Positions 6,145 through 28,968 are shown, numbered from the stretch's first letter. The stretch: 64,000 nt of DNA from an uncultured Clostridia bacterium (GCA_934119935.1 CAKOSX010000002.1:44294-108293); one strand, 5' to 3'. The notes: a model not told the origin generated them from the sequence alone. Numbers and translations: made by a program.

Positions 6145-6202
6145 GAAATACCGAAATTTTTAAAAATTGAAATTGTTTTATATATAAATAATTGTAAAAT
6201 AG

Positions 6203-7495
<1,293 letters not shown>

Positions 7496-7587: not shown

Positions 7588-8247
7588 ATGGCTAGAAAAA
7601 GAGATCCTTTAGAGTTAAATAAAAGAGAAAAGGCTATTTTAAAATTCATTGAAAAGGAACTAAATGAAAATGGATATCCACCTTCTGTAAGAGAGATAGG
7701 AAAAGCAGTTGGATTAAAATCTACTGCAACAGTACACTCTTACCTTGGAAGGCTTGAAGAGGGAGGATATATTTCAAGAAAAGATAAAAAAGGTAGAACT
7801 TTGCAACTTATAAGAGGCGGAAAACCATATAAACCAGCATCTTACGAAGATAAAAGTGTATACTCTGGAAAAGAAATGGTGGAGGTTCCTGTAATTGGAA
7901 GAATAACTGCTGGAGCACCTATATTGGCCGTAGAGAATATAACAGATACATTTCCTATACCTTTAGATTTTATTGGAAATAGCGAATGCTTTATGCTTAC
8001 TGTTAGAGGAGAAAGTATGATAGAAGCAGGAATAATGAATGGAGACTATATTCTTGTAAAGAAGCAAAATACTGCAGAAAATGGCGAGATAGTTGTAGCT
8101 TTAATTGATGATGAGGCAACCGTAAAAACATTTTATAAAGAGAAAGACCATATAAGATTACAACCTGAAAATTCAACAATGGACCCAATAATTGTACCAA
8201 CTTGTGAAATATTAGGAAAAGTTGCAGGTGTATTTAGAAAATTATAA
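7588..8247 (+). CDS. lexA: LexA repressor
   Basis: N-terminal wHTH (PSVREIGKAVGLKSTATVHSYL), C-terminal S24 peptidase with VRGESMIEAGIMNGDYILV and the Ser/Lys dyad region; AGGAG RBS. Confidence 0.9.
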   Translation: MARKRDPLELNKREKAILKFIEKELNENGYPPSVREIGKAVGLKSTATVHSYLGRLEEGGYISRKDKKGRTLQLIRGGKPYKPASYEDKSVYSGKEMVEVPVIGRITAGAPILAVENITDTFPIPLDFIGNSECFMLTVRGESMIEAGIMNGDYILVKKQNTAENGEIVVALIDDEATVKTFYKEKDHIRLQPENSTMDPIIVPTCEILGKVAGVFRKL

Positions 8248-8993: not shown

Positions 8994-10004
8994 ATGCTAG
9001 AATTTGGACAAGATATAGGGATTGATTTAGGTACAGCTACTGTTATCGCATATGTAAAAGGAAAAGGAATTGTTTTGAGAGAACCATCTGTAGTTGCTGT
9101 TGATAAAGATACTGGTAGTGTATTAGCCGTTGGAAAAGAAGCAAGAAGAATGCTAGGAAGAACTCCTGGAAATATAATCGCTACAAGACCATTAAGAGAT
9201 GGAGTTATATCTGATTATACTGTAACTGAGAAAATGTTGAAATATTTTATAAATAAAATATGTGGAAAATATATATTTGCACCAAGAATAATGATATGTG
9301 TTCCATCTAGAGTAACAGAAGTTGAAAAAAGAGCTGTTATAGATGCTGCAACACAAGCTGGAGCAAGAAAGGTGTATCTAATCGAAGAACCTTTAGCTGC
9401 AGCTATAGGAGCAGGATTAGACATATCTAAACCATGTGGAAACATGGTTGTAGATATTGGAGGAGGAACAACAGATATAGCAATAATATCATTAGGAGGA
9501 ACTGTAATTAGTACATCAATAAAAGTCGCAGGAGACGAATTTGATGAAGCGATTGTTAAGTATGTGAAAAAGAAACACAATATAATAATTGGAGAAAGAA
9601 CAGCAGAAGATCTAAAAATTAATATTGGATGTGTTTATCCAAAGATTCAAGACGTAGAAATGGAAATAAGGGGCAGGGACTTAATAACCGGACTTCCAAA
9701 AACAATTACAGTATACTCAAGTGAAATGTTAGAAGCGCTTACAGAATGCGCTGAACAGATAATTGAAGCTGTTCATTCAATACTAGAAAAAACACCACCA
9801 GAATTATCTGCAGATATAGGAGACAGGGGAATATATATGACTGGTGGAGGCTGCTTAATTGATGGACTTGATAAACTATTGCAGGAAAGAACAGGAATTC
9901 ATGTAATGGTCGCACAAGATTCTGTATCATGTGTAGCGCTTGGAACAGGAAAAGCCTTAGAAAATATGGATATATTAGCTGGAAAAAACAAGAGTGTAAA
10001 ATAA
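8994..10004 (+). CDS. mreB: Rod shape-determining protein MreB/Mbl family
   Basis: Actin-like ATPase motifs IGIDLGTATV, DIGGGTTD; 336 aa. Confidence 0.88.
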   Translation: MLEFGQDIGIDLGTATVIAYVKGKGIVLREPSVVAVDKDTGSVLAVGKEARRMLGRTPGNIIATRPLRDGVISDYTVTEKMLKYFINKICGKYIFAPRIMICVPSRVTEVEKRAVIDAATQAGARKVYLIEEPLAAAIGAGLDISKPCGNMVVDIGGGTTDIAIISLGGTVISTSIKVAGDEFDEAIVKYVKKKHNIIIGERTAEDLKINIGCVYPKIQDVEMEIRGRDLITGLPKTITVYSSEMLEALTECAEQIIEAVHSILEKTPPELSADIGDRGIYMTGGGCLIDGLDKLLQERTGIHVMVAQDSVSCVALGTGKALENMDILAGKNKSVK

Positions 10005-13839: not shown

Positions 13840-13925
13840 TGGTGGGCAGAGATGGATTCGAACCATCGTACCCTTACGAGAACAGATTTACAGTCTGCCG
13901 CCTTTAGCCACTCGGCCATCTGCCC
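13840..13925 (-). tRNA. tRNA-Tyr (GTA)
   Basis: Reverse complement reads GGGCAGATGGCCGAGTGGCTAAAGGCGGCAGACTGTAAATCTGTT...GGTTCGAATCCATCTCTGCCCACCA; anticodon loop CTGTAAA, long variable arm, encoded CCA. Confidence 0.85.
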
Positions 13926-13949
13926 ATTTAGCCATTTAAATATAATAAA

Positions 13950-14027
13950 TGGTGCACCCTCAAGGATTCGAACCTTGGACCGACCGGTTATGAGCCGGTT
14001 GCTCTGACCAACTGAGCTAAGGGTGCA
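13950..14027 (-). tRNA. tRNA with CAT anticodon (Met, or Ile2/lysidine type)
   Basis: Reverse complement TGCACCCTTAGCTCAGTTGGTCAGAGCAACCGGCTCATAACCGGTCGGTCCAAGGTTCGAATCCTTGAGGGTGCACCA; anticodon loop CTCATAA; overall resembles Bacillus tRNA-Ile2 (CAU). Confidence 0.8.
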
Positions 14028-14231: not shown

Positions 14232-14834
14232 ATGCGACCGTATATTGTTGAAATCTTGGGCACCCCCGAAGCGGGGAAAAGCACCAGCGTAAAAAACGTC
14301 AGACGAACGCTCTATGAGAAGGGCTACAAAGTCGGCTGGGTTCGTGAAGCTGGCGAAATCGTGCCTGATGCACTGAAAACGGGCAATGCATCAGGAAACG
14401 TCTGGATGACCATGAATGCACTTCAGGGCATCTGGGAAGAAGCCCATAGTGACCGAGACATTGTCTTGGTCGAGCGTGGGACGGTGGATGCTTCTTTCTG
14501 GAATCACTTGTACTCCAGTATGGGTGAGTTTTCGGAGGAAGAATGTTCAGCTTTTGAACACCTCTTCAAGGTACTCAAAGCTGAACCAGATTGCATTCTC
14601 TTTCTGACAGTTTCCGCAGAGGAAAGTATCAGACGGAGAGGTGGCGAGGGTCATCTTGTGACTAAAGCGTTCATTGAACGTTTTAACAACGAGATCAACA
14701 AATTCTTGCCTACGGTTCCCATAAAGCAGGAAATGCTTAATACTTGCGGTATGAGCACGTCGCAGGTACACGATTGGATGCTCGAGACGATTGAAAGTGG
14801 TTATTCTGCTTTCAAGACCCAGATGAAGGGTTAA
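14232..14834 (+). CDS. Deoxynucleoside kinase-like P-loop kinase (dNK/dGK family), horizontally acquired
   Basis: Walker A GTPEAGKST; ER(S)-like motif LVERGTVDASFW; Arg-rich lid SIRRRGGEG as in dCK/dGK; 200 aa, same size as Bacillus Dck/Dgk. GC about 50% versus about 30% for neighbours, with foreign codon usage (CTG, GGC, CGC); GGGAGG RBS. Confidence 0.6.
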   Translation: MRPYIVEILGTPEAGKSTSVKNVRRTLYEKGYKVGWVREAGEIVPDALKTGNASGNVWMTMNALQGIWEEAHSDRDIVLVERGTVDASFWNHLYSSMGEFSEEECSAFEHLFKVLKAEPDCILFLTVSAEESIRRRGGEGHLVTKAFIERFNNEINKFLPTVPIKQEMLNTCGMSTSQVHDWMLETIESGYSAFKTQMKG

Positions 14835-19126: not shown

Positions 19127-20617
19127 ATGGCAGACATAAAAGAATTAATGCAAGTACGTAGAGACAAAATGCAAAAGTTAATAGATAATGGTGTAAATGT
19201 ACACCCAGAGAGATATGAGAGAACACATCAAATTAAAGAAGCAAGAGAATTACCAGATGGAACAAAAGATGTTTCGATTGCTGGAAGAGTAATGTCTAAG
19301 AGAAAATTAGGAAAAATAAGCTTCTTAGATTTAAGAGATTTAGAAGGACATCTTCAATTAGTTATTAAAAAAGAAGATTTGGGAGAAGATGTATATAAAT
19401 TCTTACACGAAACAGTTGATATTGGTGATTTCATTGGAGTAAAAGGAGAAATATTTACAACTCAAGCGGGAGAAAAATCACTTCAAGTTTATGAATATAC
19501 ATTCTTAGGAAAGGCAATTCGTCCACTTCCAGAAAAATTCCATGGTTTAACAGACCAAGATGCAGTATACAGAGAGAGACATCTTGATTTAATAATGAAC
19601 GATGATGCTAAAAAGAGATTTGTATTAAGAACAAAGTTTATCAGATTAATGAGAGAATTCTTAGATACACATGAATTTTTAGAGGTAGACACACCAGTTC
19701 TTCAAAATACAGCTTCTGGAGCAACAGCAAAACCATTCATAACACACCACAATGCATTAGACATGGACGTATATTTAAGAATATCTCCAGAATTAACATT
19801 GAAAAAGCTTATAATTGGTGGATTTTCAAATGTATATGAAATTGCAAGAGACTTCAGAAATGAGGGAATGGATGCAAACCATTTACAAGACTTCACAATG
19901 GTTGAAGGATACAGTGCTTATTGGTGCTATAGAGATAATATGAAATTTTTAAGAGAAATGGTTATATATATATTATCAAAATTATTCGATGGAAACTTGA
20001 ATATCAAAATTGGAGAGCAAGAAATTGACTTCGGAGGAGAATGGCAAGTAGTATCATTCAGAGATTTAATACTTAAAGACTGTGGAATAGATATTGACAA
20101 ATTCGAAACAGCAGAAAGCTTACTTGCAGAGATAAAAGCAAAAGGAATAAAATTAGAGGCAGACAACTTAGAACAATTAGGAAGAGGAAATTTAATAGAT
20201 ACATTATACAAAAAGGTAAGCAGACCAAACATAATAAATCCAACATATCTAATTGAACACCCAATAGATTTATCTCCACTTGCTAGAAGCAATGATGAAA
20301 ATCCAAAATTGACAGATAGATTCCAATTAGTAGTAAATGGACAAGAAATAATAAATGGATATTCAGAGCTTGTAGACTGTGACGAACAAGAAAGAAGATT
20401 TATAGAGCAAGCTGAATTAAAGGCAAATGGTGATGAAGAAGCAATGAGCATAGACACAGAATATATAAGAGCTATGCAATATGGTATGCCACCAATTTCT
20501 GGTTGGGGACTTGGAATAGATAGATTCTTACAATTCTTAACAAACAGTGATAACATAAGAGATGTAGTTCTATACCCATTAATGAAACCAAGAGCAGCAG
20601 AAGAAAGCGAAGAATAA
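19127..20617 (+). CDS. lysS: Lysine--tRNA ligase (class II)
   Basis: N-terminal OB anticodon-binding domain; class II motifs FLEVDTPVLQ, RDFRNEGMD, GLGIDR. Confidence 0.93.
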   Translation: MADIKELMQVRRDKMQKLIDNGVNVHPERYERTHQIKEARELPDGTKDVSIAGRVMSKRKLGKISFLDLRDLEGHLQLVIKKEDLGEDVYKFLHETVDIGDFIGVKGEIFTTQAGEKSLQVYEYTFLGKAIRPLPEKFHGLTDQDAVYRERHLDLIMNDDAKKRFVLRTKFIRLMREFLDTHEFLEVDTPVLQNTASGATAKPFITHHNALDMDVYLRISPELTLKKLIIGGFSNVYEIARDFRNEGMDANHLQDFTMVEGYSAYWCYRDNMKFLREMVIYILSKLFDGNLNIKIGEQEIDFGGEWQVVSFRDLILKDCGIDIDKFETAESLLAEIKAKGIKLEADNLEQLGRGNLIDTLYKKVSRPNIINPTYLIEHPIDLSPLARSNDENPKLTDRFQLVVNGQEIINGYSELVDCDEQERRFIEQAELKANGDEEAMSIDTEYIRAMQYGMPPISGWGLGIDRFLQFLTNSDNIRDVVLYPLMKPRAAEESEE

Positions 20618-20725: not shown

Positions 20726-20754
20726 TTGACTATGGCAACATAATGTTGTAAAAT
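20726..20754 (+). promoter_or_regulatory. Promoter TTGACT-17-TAAAAT upstream of the beta-CASP gene
   Basis: Host-like AT-rich consensus promoter about 70 nt upstream of the GC-rich ORF. Confidence 0.5.
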
Positions 20755-20826
20755 AAAAACATGAAATGTTTGCATAAAACATTTTAAAGCTAATTAACTT
20801 TATTATTTTTTGATTGGAGGATTATT

Positions 20827-22242
20827 ATGGGTTCAAAAGACCGGCTCTACGCAGACATCATGGCTGTGCATCCAGAGGTAACTGGCTCATGCAATCTGGT
20901 TATTGTAAAACAGCCAGATAATAGCACGGTCAAATTTGTTGTTGATTGTGGCCTCTTTCAAGAGAGGCAGTACAGCAAGAACAATGAGAGTTTGCCTTTC
21001 ATCCCGGCTAACATCGATTTTTGTTTGGTTACGCATAATCATGTGGATCATGTTGGTCGCTTGCCTTTTATGGTGAGTAAGGGTTACAACCAAGAGATCT
21101 ATATGACTGAGACAACTGCAAAGCTCTTGCCTTTGGCTTTGGAAGATAGCTATAAGGTGCTAAGAGATGTTGCAAAACGGCAGAACCATTCGCCGTTGTA
21201 CAGCGAGAGTGATGTGTCCCAAACCATGAGACTGATTCATCCTTGCAAGTATAATGAGACTATCCAGATTCGCCCGAATATTAAGGCAACATTCTTTATG
21301 AATGGCCACTTGATGGGAGCTTCTAGCATTCTCGTTCAAATCAGTTGGGAGGGATACGAAACAATTAATTTGTTCTTTAGCGGAGACTACAACAACAAGA
21401 ACATGTTCTTTGATGTACCAGACCTTCCGGATTGGGTACTTGACCTTCCACTTACGTTGGTTCAGGAATCCACTTATGGAAACATGGACTCCTATGAGGT
21501 TACGAGCTGCTTTAAGCAGAATGTACTGAGGTGCCTCGAACATGGTGGTACGATTGTTGCACCAGTCTTTTCGCTGGGACGTTCGCAGGAAATTCTGTAT
21601 GAGGTTAAATGCATGCAGGACGATGGCTCTTTGGATGTAAATGTGCCGATTTATTTCGATGGAAAGCTTGGCATCAGATATACCACGCTTTACTTGAAAG
21701 ATGGACTGGACATCAAGGAAGATATGAAAAACTTCCTTCCGAAGAACCTTACCTTTGTGGACAAGGTTAATCGTGGCGAAGTCTTGACGAGTACTATGCC
21801 TAAGATTATCCTTACCACTTCTGGCATGGGATCGTATGGTCCTGCACAGGTGTATATTCCAGAGTATTTGACCAGAAGAAATTCGCTTATCCACTTCACG
21901 GGCTATACCACAGAAGGTACGCTCGGTGCAAGACTTAAAGAGGCTGAAGTCGGCACGGCAGTTCAGATTGGTGGTACGCTTGTTAAAAAGTATGCACAGG
22001 TCGAATACACCACCGAATATTCTGCTCACGCAAAGGCAGATGAGATGATTGACTTCCTCAAGAAGTTCAAACACCTTAAGTTGGTCCTTGTGAATCACGG
22101 AGAGGCTGATACAAAGCAAATATTTGCAGAAAGGATTATCAACGAAGTTGACACTGAAAGGGTCGGAATTCTGGGAAGTGGTTACTTCTTCCGTGTGAAT
22201 CACGAAGGCCTTATCAAGAGCCTGTCGACAAAATTCGAATAA
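20827..22242 (+). CDS. Metallo-beta-lactamase fold beta-CASP family nuclease (RNase J / CPSF-like), foreign GC
   Basis: HxHxDH motif THNHVDHVGRLP; beta-CASP motif A (QESTYG) and C-terminal His motif (YSAHAKADE); 471 aa; GC about 44% with foreign codon usage; GGAGG RBS. Confidence 0.75.
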   Translation: MGSKDRLYADIMAVHPEVTGSCNLVIVKQPDNSTVKFVVDCGLFQERQYSKNNESLPFIPANIDFCLVTHNHVDHVGRLPFMVSKGYNQEIYMTETTAKLLPLALEDSYKVLRDVAKRQNHSPLYSESDVSQTMRLIHPCKYNETIQIRPNIKATFFMNGHLMGASSILVQISWEGYETINLFFSGDYNNKNMFFDVPDLPDWVLDLPLTLVQESTYGNMDSYEVTSCFKQNVLRCLEHGGTIVAPVFSLGRSQEILYEVKCMQDDGSLDVNVPIYFDGKLGIRYTTLYLKDGLDIKEDMKNFLPKNLTFVDKVNRGEVLTSTMPKIILTTSGMGSYGPAQVYIPEYLTRRNSLIHFTGYTTEGTLGARLKEAEVGTAVQIGGTLVKKYAQVEYTTEYSAHAKADEMIDFLKKFKHLKLVLVNHGEADTKQIFAERIINEVDTERVGILGSGYFFRVNHEGLIKSLSTKFE

Positions 22243-22263
22243 AATAATTCATACAACGTGCTG

Positions 22264-22286
22264 GGGCTCCCTTTTTGGGAGCCTCA
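22264..22286 (+). terminator. GC-rich hairpin terminator after the beta-CASP gene
   Basis: GGGGCTCCC-ttttt-GGGAGCCTC. Confidence 0.45.
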
Positions 22287-22345
22287 GTTTGTGCTATATA
22301 AGGAAAAATATTATGTAAATATTTATTAAAATTTGAAAGGATTCA

Positions 22346-22374
22346 TTGAAAATTGTAATTATAAATGATATAAT
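22346..22374 (+). promoter_or_regulatory. Promoter TTGAAA-17-TATAAT upstream of the PIN-PhoH gene
   Basis: Consensus-like -35/-10 with 17-nt spacer in the AT-rich spacer between the two GC-rich ORFs. Confidence 0.5.
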
Positions 22375-22398
22375 ATAAGAAGTTCGAATACACACACA

Positions 22399-22424
22399 GT
22401 TCTGAAACATACTATTTTCAGAAC
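22399..22424 (+). promoter_or_regulatory. Perfect 9-bp inverted repeat GTTCTGAAA-N8-TTTCAGAAC in the 5'UTR of the PIN-PhoH gene
   Basis: Lies between the -10 element and the RBS; either an operator or a leader hairpin. Confidence 0.4.
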
Positions 22425-22450
22425 GCAATTTGCAAAGGAGTTATATACAA

Positions 22451-23812
22451 ATGAAAAAAGTATTCGTTTTGAGGACGGAAGCTTTGTTGGCATCTAAGGA
22501 TCCGACTTTGAGATTTGGCGACGACAATACTATTGTTGTGCCTATGGCAATTCTCCAGAACCTTTATCGGTACAAGGGTGTGCCGGAAAAGATGAGCATG
22601 GCAAGTAGGTTCGTAGAGTATATCGACAGCCTTCCCCAGAATGATTTGCTTTCCGAGGAAGGCTTCAAGCAGGAAAACGGTAGTTACCTGCGCATTGTGG
22701 ATAATGGACCTATTGAGCAGGAAATTGCTAATTTGGCAGATTTTTCGCGGCTTGACCATAGAGTTTTCCAGGTTTGTAAGGATTTGAAGAAAAAGAGCAA
22801 AAAGGTTATCTTGATTTCTAGAAATCCGAATATCCGTCTGAAGGGCAATCAGCTTGGAATTGATACTGAGCTGTTTAAAGACGAGATTTTCCCTAAACCT
22901 TGTGATCAATATAAGGGGATAGTCGAAGTTTTCATGCCTGGGAGCTCACTGGAAAAAATGTTCACCGATGAAAGAGGAGTTCCTGTAGAGGAAGTGTACC
23001 AGTATGAAAATTTCGACTGGATTGAAAACGAGTTCGTCGAGATTGTCAGTGACACTTCTAAGGCCATAGGACGTTATACCAATGGACGAATTGTTCGCCT
23101 TAAGTATGACAAGAGCATCCCGGGAGGACATAAGGCTCTCAATGTAGAGCAGGTTGTATTCTGGGAATCCTTGCTTATGCCGCCTGATATAGCACCATTG
23201 GTTGTTACGAAAGGTGTTGCAGGTACCGGAAAAACCTATTGTTCTTTGGCAATGGCATTGAATGCGATTGAAAAGAAAGGGGACAAGAAAAAGCAGACAT
23301 ATAAGCAGATTATTGTTGCAACTCCCACTGTCACGGTGGCAAACGAAGAACTGGGCTTTTTGCCTGGTGAAATCGATGATAAGGTGGGCCCGTATCTCGG
23401 CGGTATTGTTGATAATTTGAAGGAGATTCTCAGACCGAAATTTCCGGATTTCACAAATGCTGAGCTGAAGAAGAAGGCAATGGAATTCTTCGAGAGAGGA
23501 GACATCGAAATTCAGCCGATTGGATTCCTGCGTGGTCGCACAATTCCGAACACGGTGTTTATCATCGATGAAACGCAGAATATAAAGCCGTGCGATATCA
23601 AGGACATTGTTACGCGTTCTGCCGAAGGTTCGAAGTTCATCTTCTTGGGAGACGCTGACCAGGTTAACAATCCCGCGCTTAATTCGCGCTACAACGGTTT
23701 GGTGTACCTGAGTGAAAAGATGAAAGGCAACCCGCATACCTTCCAGATTACGCTTAACAGCAAGAAGTCTGTTAGAAGCAAGTTGGCACAGGAGGCACTT
23801 GACATTCTCTAA
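22451..23812 (+). CDS. PhoH-like ATPase with N-terminal PIN domain (YlaK-like), foreign GC
   Basis: N-terminal PIN-like fold (KVFVLRTEALL...NTIVVPMAIL); C-terminal PhoH P-loop VVTKGVAGTGKT, LGFLPGEIDDKVGPYL, IDETQN; 453 aa from the ATG at 22451 (AAGGAG RBS); GC about 44%. Confidence 0.75.
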   Translation: MKKVFVLRTEALLASKDPTLRFGDDNTIVVPMAILQNLYRYKGVPEKMSMASRFVEYIDSLPQNDLLSEEGFKQENGSYLRIVDNGPIEQEIANLADFSRLDHRVFQVCKDLKKKSKKVILISRNPNIRLKGNQLGIDTELFKDEIFPKPCDQYKGIVEVFMPGSSLEKMFTDERGVPVEEVYQYENFDWIENEFVEIVSDTSKAIGRYTNGRIVRLKYDKSIPGGHKALNVEQVVFWESLLMPPDIAPLVVTKGVAGTGKTYCSLAMALNAIEKKGDKKKQTYKQIIVATPTVTVANEELGFLPGEIDDKVGPYLGGIVDNLKEILRPKFPDFTNAELKKKAMEFFERGDIEIQPIGFLRGRTIPNTVFIIDETQNIKPCDIKDIVTRSAEGSKFIFLGDADQVNNPALNSRYNGLVYLSEKMKGNPHTFQITLNSKKSVRSKLAQEALDIL

Positions 23813-23893
23813 TAGACAGGAGAAGAGAAAAAATTAAAAAAGTAGAAAGTACAAGATTTTATTCTGGAAATCTGCTAAACTCCATAGCAAAGA

Positions 23894-23924
23894 AACAGGA
23901 GGCGAAATTTTCGCCTCCTGTTTT
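23894..23924 (+). terminator. Rho-independent terminator after the PIN-PhoH gene
   Basis: Perfect 14-bp stem AACAGGAGGCGAAA / TTTCGCCTCCTGTT followed by TTTTCC. Confidence 0.65.
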
Positions 23925-24062
23925 CCTATGATATTGAAAAATGTTTTAAACATAGAGAAGAAGCTCTTTTTAGAATAATTTTTTTGCCCTAAATGCTTGT
24001 ATTTTTGGGCTGTTTGTTATAAAATATTGTCAATATTATGTTAAAAAGATAAGGAGAAAAAT

Positions 24063-25754
24063 TTGAATAAAAAATGGGAATTAAACGAAGCAAATGATGC
24101 ACTGATTAACAAGATATCAGAAGAATTTAACGTAAGTAAATTGGTTGCAAATATTATTGCAAATAAAGGATTAACAAACAGTGATGAAATAGAAGTTTTT
24201 TTGCACCCAAGGAGGACAGATTTTCATGATCCGTTCATGATGCCTGACATGGAGAAGGCGGTAGATAGAGTCGTTAAGGCAATTGAGACTCACGAGAAGG
24301 TTGCAATTTATGGAGATTATGATGTTGATGGAATTACGAGTAGCACTGTTTTGAAGAGATTTTTAGCTGAGAGAGGGCTTGAAACAGATGTGTATATTCC
24401 TAATAGATTGCATGAAGGGTATGGATTAAATGAGAATGCGATAAGAGAAATTGCAGATACTAAACATACATTGATTATAACGGTTGATTGTGGAATTACT
24501 GGAAACAAAGAGATTGAACTTGCAAAGTCACTCGGAATAGATACTGTTGTGACTGACCACCACGAACCAACCGAAACATTACCAGATGCGATTGCGGTGG
24601 TTGATTGTAAGAGAAAAGATAATGAGTATCCATTTAATGGACTAGCCGGTGTAGGAGTTGCATTTAAATTAACTCAGGCTATTTCGATGAGGCTGGGAGT
24701 AAGAGAAGAGGAATATCTAAAATACTTAGACTTAGTATGTGTTGGAACAATTTCTGATATTGTTCCACTTGTAGACGAAAATAGAACTATATCAAAATTA
24801 GGATTGAAACTAGTTAGACAGACACGAAATATTGGTTTAAAAGTATTATTAGATAGTATTGGTTATAAAAAAATAGATTCTACGGCAATATCTTTTGGAG
24901 TTGCTCCAAGAATAAATGCGTGTGGAAGAATGGGACATGAGAAAGAGGCTTTGGAGCTATTTTTAACAGATAGCAAAGAAGAAGCTGAGAAAATAACACA
25001 GAATTTAAATGCGTATAACTTAGAGCGCCAAGAGATTGAAAAGAGAATATTTAATGAAGCTCAAAAGATGATGGAAGACCCAGAACAGCAAAAACTTCCA
25101 TGCATAGTATTAGGTGGAGAAAACTGGCACCATGGTGTTATTGGAATTGTTTCATCAAAGATTACAGACATGTATTTTAAGCCTAGCGTATTGCTTTGCT
25201 ACGAGGACGATTTAGCTCGTGGTTCTGGAAGAAGTATTCCTGGGTTTGACTTGCATGAGGCATTAGAAAAATGTAGTACGTACATCAAGCAATTTGGTGG
25301 ACACAGCATGGCAATTGGAATTACGATAGAAAAAGATAATTTTGAAAAATTTAAAAAAGAGTTTGAAGAATATGCTGAAAAATCTAATATTTCATCTATC
25401 GTTCCAGTAATTAAAATAGATGAAAAAGTACAATTACAAGATATCAGCATAAAAGATATAAAAGACTTAGAATTGCTAGAACCATTTGGAGAAGGAAATA
25501 AGATGCCATTGTTCCAGATTAGCAATTTAAAAATAACATCAATCAGAACACTTTCGGAAGGAAAGCACTTGAAAGCAATGCTTCAAGACGAAAACAAATA
25601 CATAGACACAATAGGATTTAATCTGGGAAATATATCTTCTGAATATGCGATAGGTTCAAAAGTAGATGTTGTAGGAAACTTAGAGATAAATAGTTATAAG
25701 GGAATGGAAAATATACAAATTAATCTAAAAGATATGAGACATAGCATAAGCTAA
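24063..25754 (+). CDS. recJ: Single-stranded-DNA-specific exonuclease RecJ
   Basis: DHH motif (VTDHHEP), DHHA1 domain, C-terminal OB; TTG start with AAGGAG RBS. Confidence 0.85.
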   Translation: MNKKWELNEANDALINKISEEFNVSKLVANIIANKGLTNSDEIEVFLHPRRTDFHDPFMMPDMEKAVDRVVKAIETHEKVAIYGDYDVDGITSSTVLKRFLAERGLETDVYIPNRLHEGYGLNENAIREIADTKHTLIITVDCGITGNKEIELAKSLGIDTVVTDHHEPTETLPDAIAVVDCKRKDNEYPFNGLAGVGVAFKLTQAISMRLGVREEEYLKYLDLVCVGTISDIVPLVDENRTISKLGLKLVRQTRNIGLKVLLDSIGYKKIDSTAISFGVAPRINACGRMGHEKEALELFLTDSKEEAEKITQNLNAYNLERQEIEKRIFNEAQKMMEDPEQQKLPCIVLGGENWHHGVIGIVSSKITDMYFKPSVLLCYEDDLARGSGRSIPGFDLHEALEKCSTYIKQFGGHSMAIGITIEKDNFEKFKKEFEEYAEKSNISSIVPVIKIDEKVQLQDISIKDIKDLELLEPFGEGNKMPLFQISNLKITSIRTLSEGKHLKAMLQDENKYIDTIGFNLGNISSEYAIGSKVDVVGNLEINSYKGMENIQINLKDMRHSIS

Positions 25755-28693: not shown

Positions 28694-28714
28694 AAACTAA
28701 TTACTGCATTACCA

Positions 28715-28968
28715 ATTTTAATTTTTTTAAACTTCGGTACGGCGCTCTTGGTCGGAGCTCCTTCGGACTCCTCAAAGGGCGAGCTTGACCTTGTTTTGCA
28801 AAAATGAAAATTGGCATGCAATATAAAGGTATAAATAGCCAATTTAAATTTTTTTAAACTTTGGTACGGCGTTCTTGGTCGGAGCTCCTTCGGACTCCTC
28901 AAAGGGCGAGCTTGACCTTGTTTTGCAAAAATGAAAATTGGTAATGCAATAAATCTAAATTTTAATTT
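28715..28968. repeat. Tandem direct repeat (2 x about 127 bp) carrying repeat-family copies C and D (reverse orientation)
   Basis: AATTT(T/A)AATTTTTTTAAACTT(C/T)GGTACGGCG(C/T)TCTTGGTCGGAGCTCCTTCGGACTCCTCAAAGGGCGAGCTTGACCTTGTTTTGCAAAAATGAAAATTGG repeated with period 127 and 3 mismatches; occupies the hisS leader. Confidence 0.7.

Follow-up and report, generated by a model that had tools for sequence, protein, structure and literature searches.

In an uncultured Clostridia bacterium, two adjacent same-strand genes between lysS and recJ are far richer in GC than the genes around them, which raises the question of whether they work, and arrived, as one system. The first (gene 1) encodes a beta-CASP nuclease, and the second (gene 2) encodes a protein that combines a PIN fold with a PhoH ATPase (PIN-PhoH). 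Both lie in a stretch of 64,000 nucleotides (GCA_934119935.1, CAKOSX010000002.1:44294-108293), which was analyzed at its full length and is called the window here. A preliminary description of the window regarded this cassette as a candidate RNA-targeting two-component system acquired by horizontal transfer. Our analysis favors another answer: the genes are probably two independent single-gene RNA-metabolism units that are neighbors by chance within a single genus of gut Clostridia with AT-rich genomes. On this reading, the claim of a new defence or RNA-targeting system is to be downgraded, the pairing being a local accident of gene order, and the features worth attention are a gene-specific, long-maintained excess of GC at third codon positions (GC3) and a leader RNA.

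Linkage of the two genes and history of the locus

In the survey of the nuclease, one genome per species was scanned; 197 species had relatives, and the best 80 of the 197 were kept as loci (individual loci are denoted by L numbers). These best 80 relatives (56–99% identity) came from uncultured AT-rich gut Clostridia and one metagenome-assembled genome labelled Erysipelotrichaceae. Among these 80 species-level loci, the PIN-PhoH gene adjoined the nuclease gene in two, both of the window's genus: L018, and L019 from Clostridium sp. CAG:245. Other look-ups added two loci with an adjacent PIN-PhoH gene, L009 and L097, again from that genus, and the contig of L017 ends at the nuclease stop codon. 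At all loci with a nuclease of ≤ 68% identity, there was no PIN-PhoH, lysS, or recJ gene within 10 kb. The neighbors of the nuclease gene in other genera were genes for peroxiredoxin, a ClpX-like ATPase, and formate-tetrahydrofolate ligase, together with smpB, fba, and uvrA, each found in at most 16 of 83 loci. Four relatives, one of them a same- or sister-species strain, keep the nuclease gene without PIN-PhoH: the order is lysS–nuclease–recJ in L020, L024, and L266, and nuclease–recJ–relA on the short contig of L263. The flanks of L266 are 93–97% identical to those of the window, and exactly positions 22289–23978 are missing there. PIN-PhoH homologues at 52–65% identity stand alone as single genes beside thrS/rimP-nusA, mutS2, or uvrC, and when about 160 additional PIN-PhoH loci of metagenomes and viruses were examined, a beta-CASP gene was nearby in the window's species and in L099 only. 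Beside a nuclease gene found throughout the lineage, PIN-PhoH was inserted or deleted independently, as a single gene.

These results bear on the proposal that the pair is a two-component module dedicated to targeting RNA (in defence, in surveillance, or in a toxin-like role) and was acquired horizontally as a unit, with an ATPase that would recognize or unwind RNA and a nuclease that would destroy it. The preliminary description had tied this proposal to the co-occurrence of the two genes in other genomes, but they were adjacent in the window's genus alone, and acquisition as one unit is not supported. The recurrence in defence islands or unrelated genomes that it had envisaged did not emerge from the neighborhood survey, in which adjacency was confined to the window's genus and the flanks were housekeeping genes. 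A conserved beta-CASP and PIN-PhoH operon, with adjacency recurring across unrelated genomes, was rejected on the same data. A point in favor of a module is L099, from a second genus, in which both genes lie within 2 kb on one contig; we did not accept it as a second operon because fba lies between the genes and the beta-CASP open reading frame (ORF) is truncated at its N-terminus. Other properties that count against a module are the housekeeping neighborhood of the cassette, with lysS (19127–20617) upstream and recJ (24063–25754) downstream, and a nuclease family that behaves like a vertically inherited core gene. No integrase was found near the cassette, no CRISPR-like repeat array in the 64-kb window, no cas genes among the annotated genes within 10 kb of the cassette, and no direct or inverted repeats bracketing the cassette or the PIN-PhoH unit. 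The defence models of PADLOC-DB 2.0 gave no match for gene 1 and weak helicase-core matches alone for gene 2 (Nhi, 22.9 bits; AbiO, 20.6 bits). As had been stated before, no described system that pairs a beta-CASP nuclease with a PIN-PhoH protein was found in PADLOC or the literature searched.

The signals around the genes also argue for separate units (Table 1). The two ORFs reported earlier were confirmed, and gene 2 starts with MKK at 22451, where its homologues begin, not with TTG at 22430. Consensus-like sites were found at both AT-rich promoters that had been proposed. Across the nuclease family, the promoter has the form TTGACATAA-N15-17-TGATAAACT, and the -10 box of gene 2 is conserved in L019. 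Each gene had also been credited with its own hairpin terminator: both hairpins fold strongly, but the first has no clean T-run, and a terminator scan made no call there. This first hairpin is retained directly 3' of the gene in L266 and L019. The 209-nt spacer contains signals for stopping transcription and for starting it anew, and genes 1 and 2 are therefore two transcription units, a separation that speaks against a module. No phoAT-like ORF was found upstream of gene 2; the sole plus-strand small ORF in 22243–22450 has 23 amino acids (aa) and spans the upstream terminator hairpin. A PhoAT-PhoH2 toxin-antitoxin pair, which has a small co-transcribed antitoxin gene upstream, was rejected for gene 2 on this basis.

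Table 1. Positions of genes, signals, and the variable segment in the lysS–recJ interval of the window
Feature	Position	Strand	Details
Promoter-like site of gene 1	20726..20754	+	TTGACT-17-TAAAAT, consensus scan; kept in the genus (L019, L020, L024)
Leader hairpin 1 of gene 1	20762..20786	+	UGAAAUGUUU / AAACAUUUUA; folding prediction
Leader hairpin 2 of gene 1	20790..20820	+	Folding prediction; 3' arm UUGAUUGG overlaps Shine-Dalgarno sequence GGAGG
Gene 1	20827..22242	+	471 aa; GC 0.439, GC3 0.496
Hairpin 3' of gene 1, probable terminator	22256..22292	+	-27.1 kcal/mol, z -6.2
Presence/absence segment: PIN-PhoH unit with own promoter and terminator	22289..23978		Absent in L266, L020, L024, L263
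Promoter-like site of gene 2	22346..22374	+	TTGAAA-17-TATAAT with TG; 11 of 12 consensus positions
Leader hairpin of gene 2	22399..22424	+	GUUCUGAAA / UUUCAGAAC; folding prediction; conserved in L019
Gene 2	22451..23812	+	453 aa; GC 0.441, GC3 0.504
Hairpin 3' of gene 2, terminator	23892..23924	+	Perfect 15 bp, -27.4 kcal/mol, z -7.5; inverted repeat I9

We also compared alleles of the locus. Between the window and L019, the flanks are 94–96.5% identical at the DNA level and the cassette 75–77%, with break points just past the lysS stop codon and just before the recJ promoter. The synonymous divergence (dS) of the flanking genes is 0.12–0.21, whereas the nuclease gene is saturated (proportion of synonymous differences, 0.75) and the PIN-PhoH gene has a dS of 1.77; the ratio of nonsynonymous to synonymous divergence (dN/dS) is 0.03–0.07. 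The cassettes are old alleles under purifying selection that were swapped by recombination, not fast-evolving genes, and positive selection as the source of the allele divergence was rejected (dN/dS 0.03–0.14). In L009, a mosaic tract of 400–700 nt in the nuclease gene (window 20900–21300 against L009 8075–8475) has 64–75% DNA identity, and the rest of the gene and the flanks 92–100%, a sequence pattern that points to intragenic recombination between divergent alleles. The LysS proteins of L020 and L024 are 98–99% identical to that of the window, with a dS of 0.26–0.52 for lysS and 1.3–1.8 for glgP, recJ, and relA; the low lysS value suggests that recent recombination tracts between species reach into lysS. 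The divergence of the nuclease between species is about that of recJ, which fits ordinary introgression among congeners. The lysS–recJ slot would thus be a recombination-active site at which deeply diverged alleles are swapped between congeneric species, and at which PIN-PhoH may have been gained or lost independently of the nuclease.

Several observations weigh against the independence of the two genes, and most of them lend the module some support. First, adjacency is kept in the window-type and CAG:245-type haplotypes despite saturating synonymous divergence; because both deeply diverged haplotypes carry both genes, adjacency is old within that sublineage. Second, the two genes share their unusual, foreign-looking composition. 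Third, the PIN domain of gene 2 appears to be inactive (see below), which would make a trans-acting nuclease plausible, and the position of a dead-nuclease helicase beside a nuclease is a suggestive hint of cooperation. Fourth, the alleles are polymorphic on near-identical backbones, as is often the case for conflict genes; the selection on them is, however, purifying and not diversifying. Finally, up to 10 kb on each side was available for each nuclease or PIN-PhoH locus, so that co-occurrence was seen at locus scale, and the counting of leader covariation described below also belongs among these points. A partnership of the two proteins in trans is possible. Weighing both sides, we consider a dedicated, jointly acquired module to be improbable and retain two independent units as the probable explanation.

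An ATPase gene follows the nuclease gene in other genera as well. At 9–10 loci (L011–L013, L064, L082, and others), the next gene encodes a ClpX-like AAA+ ATPase of about 356–397 aa with no zinc-finger domain, which begins 46 nt 3' of the nuclease gene in L011, and at 4 more loci a ClpC/ClpB-like ATPase lies downstream. An ATPase is the downstream neighbor of the nuclease in several clades, yet these ATPases belong to three different families; this is a descriptive observation.

GC-richness of the coding regions

The compositional break and the preference for G/C-ending codons reported earlier are real. GC content is about 0.44 in the cassette against a mean of 0.319 (standard deviation 0.036) in the 43 other ORFs of the window, which served as the reference for composition, and GC3 is 0.50 against 0.200. 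The earlier statement that every flanking gene has about 30% GC agrees with this mean and fails for a third GC-rich gene at 14232–14834. The anomaly of the cassette lies mainly in the third position, and GC at codon positions 1+2 is 0.41, within the native range. Against seven flanking genes, the reference for codon usage, the frequencies in the cassette were 0.00 vs 0.56 for TTA, 0.08 vs 0.54 for ATA, 0.19 vs 0.83 for CAA, and 0.17 vs 0.81 for CCA, and CTG, CTC, CGC, and GGC were raised. A narrower signature, in which A-ending codons other than GCA are avoided, was discarded because alanine codons shift to GCC and GCG too in a wider sample, and the shift is therefore a general one in GC3. Two antisense ORFs inside the GC-rich genes (21160–22203, minus strand, 347 aa; 22946–23737, minus strand, 263 aa) were treated as by-products, best explained by a GC-rich codon usage that strips stop codons from the opposite strand.

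The excess extends to both families. Over the 80 loci, nuclease GC3 exceeded that of its neighbors by 0.11 on average; the nuclease gene had the top GC3 among ORFs of ≥ 150 aa in 55% of the loci and a z value above 4 in a third. Unlinked PIN-PhoH genes of the lineage had GC3 values of 0.33, 0.62, and 0.32 against 0.16, 0.18, and 0.15 in their neighbors (excess, 0.15–0.44), and the GC3 of distant PhoH2 genes matches that of their neighbors. Among 1077 ORFs of ≥ 120 aa in the loci, 68 were GC3 outliers, including 28 nuclease and 6 PIN-PhoH genes, and the rate for other ORFs was about 3.5%. The most extreme anomaly was the PIN-PhoH gene at 8001–9401 of L260 (57% identity), with a GC3 of 0.62 and a positions 1+2 GC of 0.48 on a contig whose other genes have a GC3 of 0.18.

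Atypical GC is usually taken to mean recent transfer. One or both genes would then have come recently from a mid-GC Firmicute, with amelioration still incomplete. The codon pattern (CTG/TTG, CAG, AAG, CCG, and ATC, with GCA retained) resembles that of mid-GC Clostridia or, more generally, a mid-GC Firmicute; GC3 correlates with GC at positions 1+2 across 79 alleles (r = 0.79, slope 0.21), as expected of residence in a GC-richer genome; and the alleles have clearly been replaced by recombination. However, the window and L020 nuclease genes are only 27% identical at fourfold sites (chance, 25%) and still have G+C contents of 0.42 and 0.51 there. Fourfold G+C is 0.4–0.5 in all saturated alleles, whereas it is about 0.1 in the control genes (0.09–0.14 in recJ and relA at equal divergence). 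Neutral amelioration cannot explain such GC-rich saturated alleles if these have lived in AT-rich genomes. Furthermore, the promoters, leaders, and spacers of the cassette, which diverged along with the alleles, stay at a GC of 0.22–0.32; the rise in GC coincides with the start codon, and the flank level is reached again soon past the stop codon, beyond the terminator hairpin.

The hosts of the homologues also speak against a recent transfer. All 80 best species-level homologues (≥ 56% identity) lie in contigs with a flank GC of 0.24–0.32, and nuclease alleles at 70–88% identity occupy the same slot or other AT-rich contexts. The window clade is nested in a family sampled (best 80 of 197) only in AT-rich hosts, in which GC3 is high over whole clades. 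Phage and plasmid collections held no homologue above 33% identity; in viral contigs, we found one beta-CASP relative at 26% identity, and canonical PhoH2 or PhoH alone at ≤ 39%. The GC-richness of the coding regions is a long-maintained trait of both families in this lineage and not the vanishing remnant of a joint transfer in the recent past. We consider maintenance in situ to be more likely than recent transfer, which we regard as doubtful.

With respect to the cause, a compositional force may act on the whole gene, through residence in an unsampled GC-richer pool or through a gene-specific bias. Translational selection for high expression was rejected, as ORFs at 49–64 kb, an apparent but unannotated ribosomal-protein region, have a GC3 of 0.14–0.19. 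A more speculative scheme, which we hold to be quite doubtful, places a small RNA-handling set in one trans-acting pathway: the beta-CASP RNase and the pseudo-PIN PhoH2, to which the P-loop protein at 14232–14834 may have to be added. These genes would be kept GC-rich at synonymous sites as a form of compositional self-immunity or as an expression channel of their own. Transcripts encoding the decay machinery would lack the A/U-rich features that are attacked by that machinery or by a stress nuclease; alternatively, they might rely on a tRNA or codon regime that sets them apart. The dead-PIN helicase could then hand RNA to the beta-CASP nuclease, with the genes unlinked yet in one pathway. Whatever the cause, a GC3 excess that is limited to coding sequences and survives saturation, in genomes with about 10% G+C at fourfold sites, contradicts the rule that equates atypical GC with recent transfer, and if selection is responsible, bacteria would provide here an unusually clear example of gene-specific selection on synonymous sites.

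Two further GC-rich features were observed. The third gene of foreign-looking composition (14232–14834, plus strand) encodes 200 aa, has a GC of 0.48 and a GC3 of 0.53, and contains the P-loop GTPEAGKST; the protein gave weak AAA_28 and thymidylate-kinase matches. It sits just downstream of tRNA-Tyr and tRNA-Met (13840–14026, minus strand), and its alleles are deeply diverged in near-identical backbones, with 55–56% aa identity in L017 and L019, where GC3 is 0.36. Additionally, 1.9 tandem copies of a GC-rich intergenic element, about 127 nt long and with inverted ends (CCAATTTT...AAAATTGG), lie upstream of hisS (28712–28951). In L019, one copy (9746–9859) separates lysS from the beta-CASP gene, and the window has no copy at that place. 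The element has no Rfam match and looks like a small mobile repeat resembling a miniature inverted-repeat transposable element.

A conserved leader RNA upstream of the nuclease gene

Upstream of the beta-CASP gene, from L017 to L096, both the promoter and a leader with two hairpins are conserved across genera (20726–20826 in the window). The leader is about 60 nt long family-wide and forms two overlapping hairpins, the second of which abuts or overlaps the Shine-Dalgarno sequence. Its arms vary by clade yet remain complementary (CATTGAAT/ATTTAATG, CCTTGAATAAA/TTTATTCTAGG, CTATAAATAAA/TTTTATTATAG, and TTAAGTT/AACTTAA), and hairpin 1 shows compensatory changes in L020 (ATGTGTT..AACACAT). A stem proximal to the Shine-Dalgarno sequence with a score of ≥ 7 was found in 82% of 73 loci, compared with 45% of shuffled sequences. 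A covariance model built from one clade gave matches almost exclusively directly upstream of the nuclease gene. In the model-fitted alignment, pairing holds in 97.4% of the cells, and compensatory changes occur at 4 of 8 pairs, which 0 of 500 shuffles reached; as the covariation was counted on this fitted alignment, the count itself favors structure. Slid registers of the alignment paired at 22–54%. A scan of 12–31 kb against Rfam (E up to 1) returned two tRNAs and chance matches, and neither leader was matched.

The gene 1 leader is a candidate for a new cis-regulatory RNA of an RNase gene. By occluding the ribosome-binding site, the second hairpin would probably control translation of the nuclease, and this control may be a form of RNase autoregulation, a feedback known for other RNases. 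Such a covarying leader outside Rfam could represent a new cis-regulatory RNA for RNase autoregulation in uncultured gut Clostridia. A leader motif common to both genes was considered and rejected: there was one weak match upstream of a PIN-PhoH gene (L258, E 0.49), and other PIN-PhoH leaders differ. This match (6151–6219) lies exactly upstream of an unlinked PIN-PhoH gene, and its hairpins (ACAATCA..TGATTGT and CATAGAATT..AATTCTATG) resemble those of the nuclease leader, perhaps by chance.

The two proteins compared with known systems

Gene 1 has the Pfam domains Lactamase_B, Beta-Casp (67.5 bits), and RMMBL (36.9 bits), the last two above their cut-offs. It carries metallo-beta-lactamase (MBL) motifs 1–4 and beta-CASP motifs A, B, and C, which places it in the beta-CASP superfamily; residues D40, H70, H72, H75, H161, D187, E214, H401, and H424 do not vary among 19 homologues, of which at least 90% also have D74. 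In a Foldseek search with the AlphaFold model (pLDDT 87), the best match was TTHA0252 (TM 0.78–0.87 over 451–468 columns), which phmmer also aligned with residues 17–428 (E 2.8e-41). Motifs and predicted fold identify gene 1 as a putative stand-alone beta-CASP ribonuclease of the TTHA0252/CPSF73 type with a core-only architecture, which, by homology, would act on mRNA as a 5'-to-3' exonuclease and endonuclease.

In gene 2, the PIN fold (residues 1–140) and the PhoH P-loop ATPase (about 227–453) named in the preliminary description were recovered by Pfam above cut-off (PIN_4, 43.7 bits; PhoH, 150.3 bits). The ATPase motifs are intact, with Walker A (GTGKT), DETQN, and LGFLPGE conserved, and Foldseek matched the AlphaFold model (pLDDT 84) to PhoH (3b85), SF1 helicases, and PIN domains (3ix7 and 2hwx). 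The PIN degeneracy suspected earlier goes further than had been thought. In an alignment with canonical PhoH2, for which dozens of proteins from metagenomic and viral loci served as the reference, VLDTN...LEELD...DH/DN...TKDIN is replaced by VLRTE...LQNLY...LDHR...SRNPN, so that three of the four catalytic acids are lost (D to R, E to Q, and D to N) and one is kept. This loss spans the whole gene 2 subfamily, down to about 38% identity. Sequence and model together indicate a PhoH2-type PIN-PhoH protein whose PIN domain retains its fold and is catalytically degenerate. It would act as an accessory hexameric RNA-dependent ATPase or helicase that most likely binds and translocates RNA and no longer cuts it, and the subfamily would thereby separate helicase from nuclease function in a family whose biology is poorly understood.

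A simpler view would be that both proteins are ordinary, gene 1 as an RNase J orthologue and gene 2 as a YlaK/PhoH2 protein, with composition as the sole oddity, and both do belong to widespread RNA-metabolism superfamilies and lie among housekeeping genes. For gene 1, however, RNase J models scored 15.3 bits (TIGR00649) and 16.6 bits (NF047419) against cut-offs of 400 and 820, the C-terminal domain of RNase J is missing, and the top 50 fold matches included no RNase J structure. Of the earlier label "RNase J / CPSF73-like," the CPSF73 part, the intact motifs, and the missing C-terminal domain stand, and the RNase J part does not. Gene 2 reached 138.9 bits with the PhoH2 equivalog NF053827, far below its cut-off of 680, and the subfamily-wide loss of PIN acids is a further departure from an ordinary PhoH2. 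We regard this view as highly improbable.

Two relatives of gene 1 differ from it in architecture. Cas14 of type VII CRISPR-Cas (PDB 8YHD, 9J9E) is its best match in PDB (sequence match, E 2.7e-43) and in NCBIfam, but the window protein does not have the C-terminal extension of about 140 residues found in Cas14. Identification as Cas14 was rejected, as the NF045584 score of 237 bits is far below the cut-off of 800, no array was found in the window, and the neighbors are lysS and recJ. The archaeal aCPSF1/FttA and the eukaryotic CPSF73/IntS11 have a catalytic core close to that of gene 1 (PDB matches, E 1e-29 to 1e-38), but the window protein has no N-terminal KH domains and no partner subunits. 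The aCPSF1 model TIGR03675 gave 197.5 bits against a cut-off of 580, aligning from profile positions 185 to 617, after the KH region; with no KH domains and a score below the cut-off, gene 1 was not classified as aCPSF1/FttA.

In PhoH2, which is believed to form hexamers, an RNA helicase is joined to a PIN RNase (PMC7390352). Gene 2 has the two-domain architecture and length of mycobacterial PhoH2 and of YlaK from Bacillus, with the Walker A/B and arginine motifs conserved; it differs from them in its replaced PIN acids. If genes 1 and 2 cooperate, they would share with the degradosome pairs (RNase E–RhlB; RNase Y/J–CshA) the logic of an ATP-driven unwinder that feeds a nuclease, but the two genes of the window are unlinked in nearly all genomes examined, and such cooperation is conjectural.

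The closest known counterpart of gene 1 is TTHA0252 of Thermus thermophilus (PDB 2DKF, 3IEK), a bacterial RNase that stands alone and acts as a 5'-3' exonuclease, and whose loss alters global mRNA levels (PMC4229858). Both proteins consist of MBL, beta-CASP, and RMMBL parts with no extra domains, share all zinc and beta-CASP motifs, and are encoded by single genes outside any dedicated operon. They superpose over the whole length with a root-mean-square deviation of about 3 Å at 26–27% identity. The window protein, in contrast, exceeds TTHA0252 by about 40 residues, has a small beta extension at its C-terminus, and belongs to a tight Clostridia-specific family (56–99% identity among the best 80 of 197), and its gene is distinguished from that of TTHA0252 by a conserved leader with a predicted regulatory role and by its anomalous codon composition.

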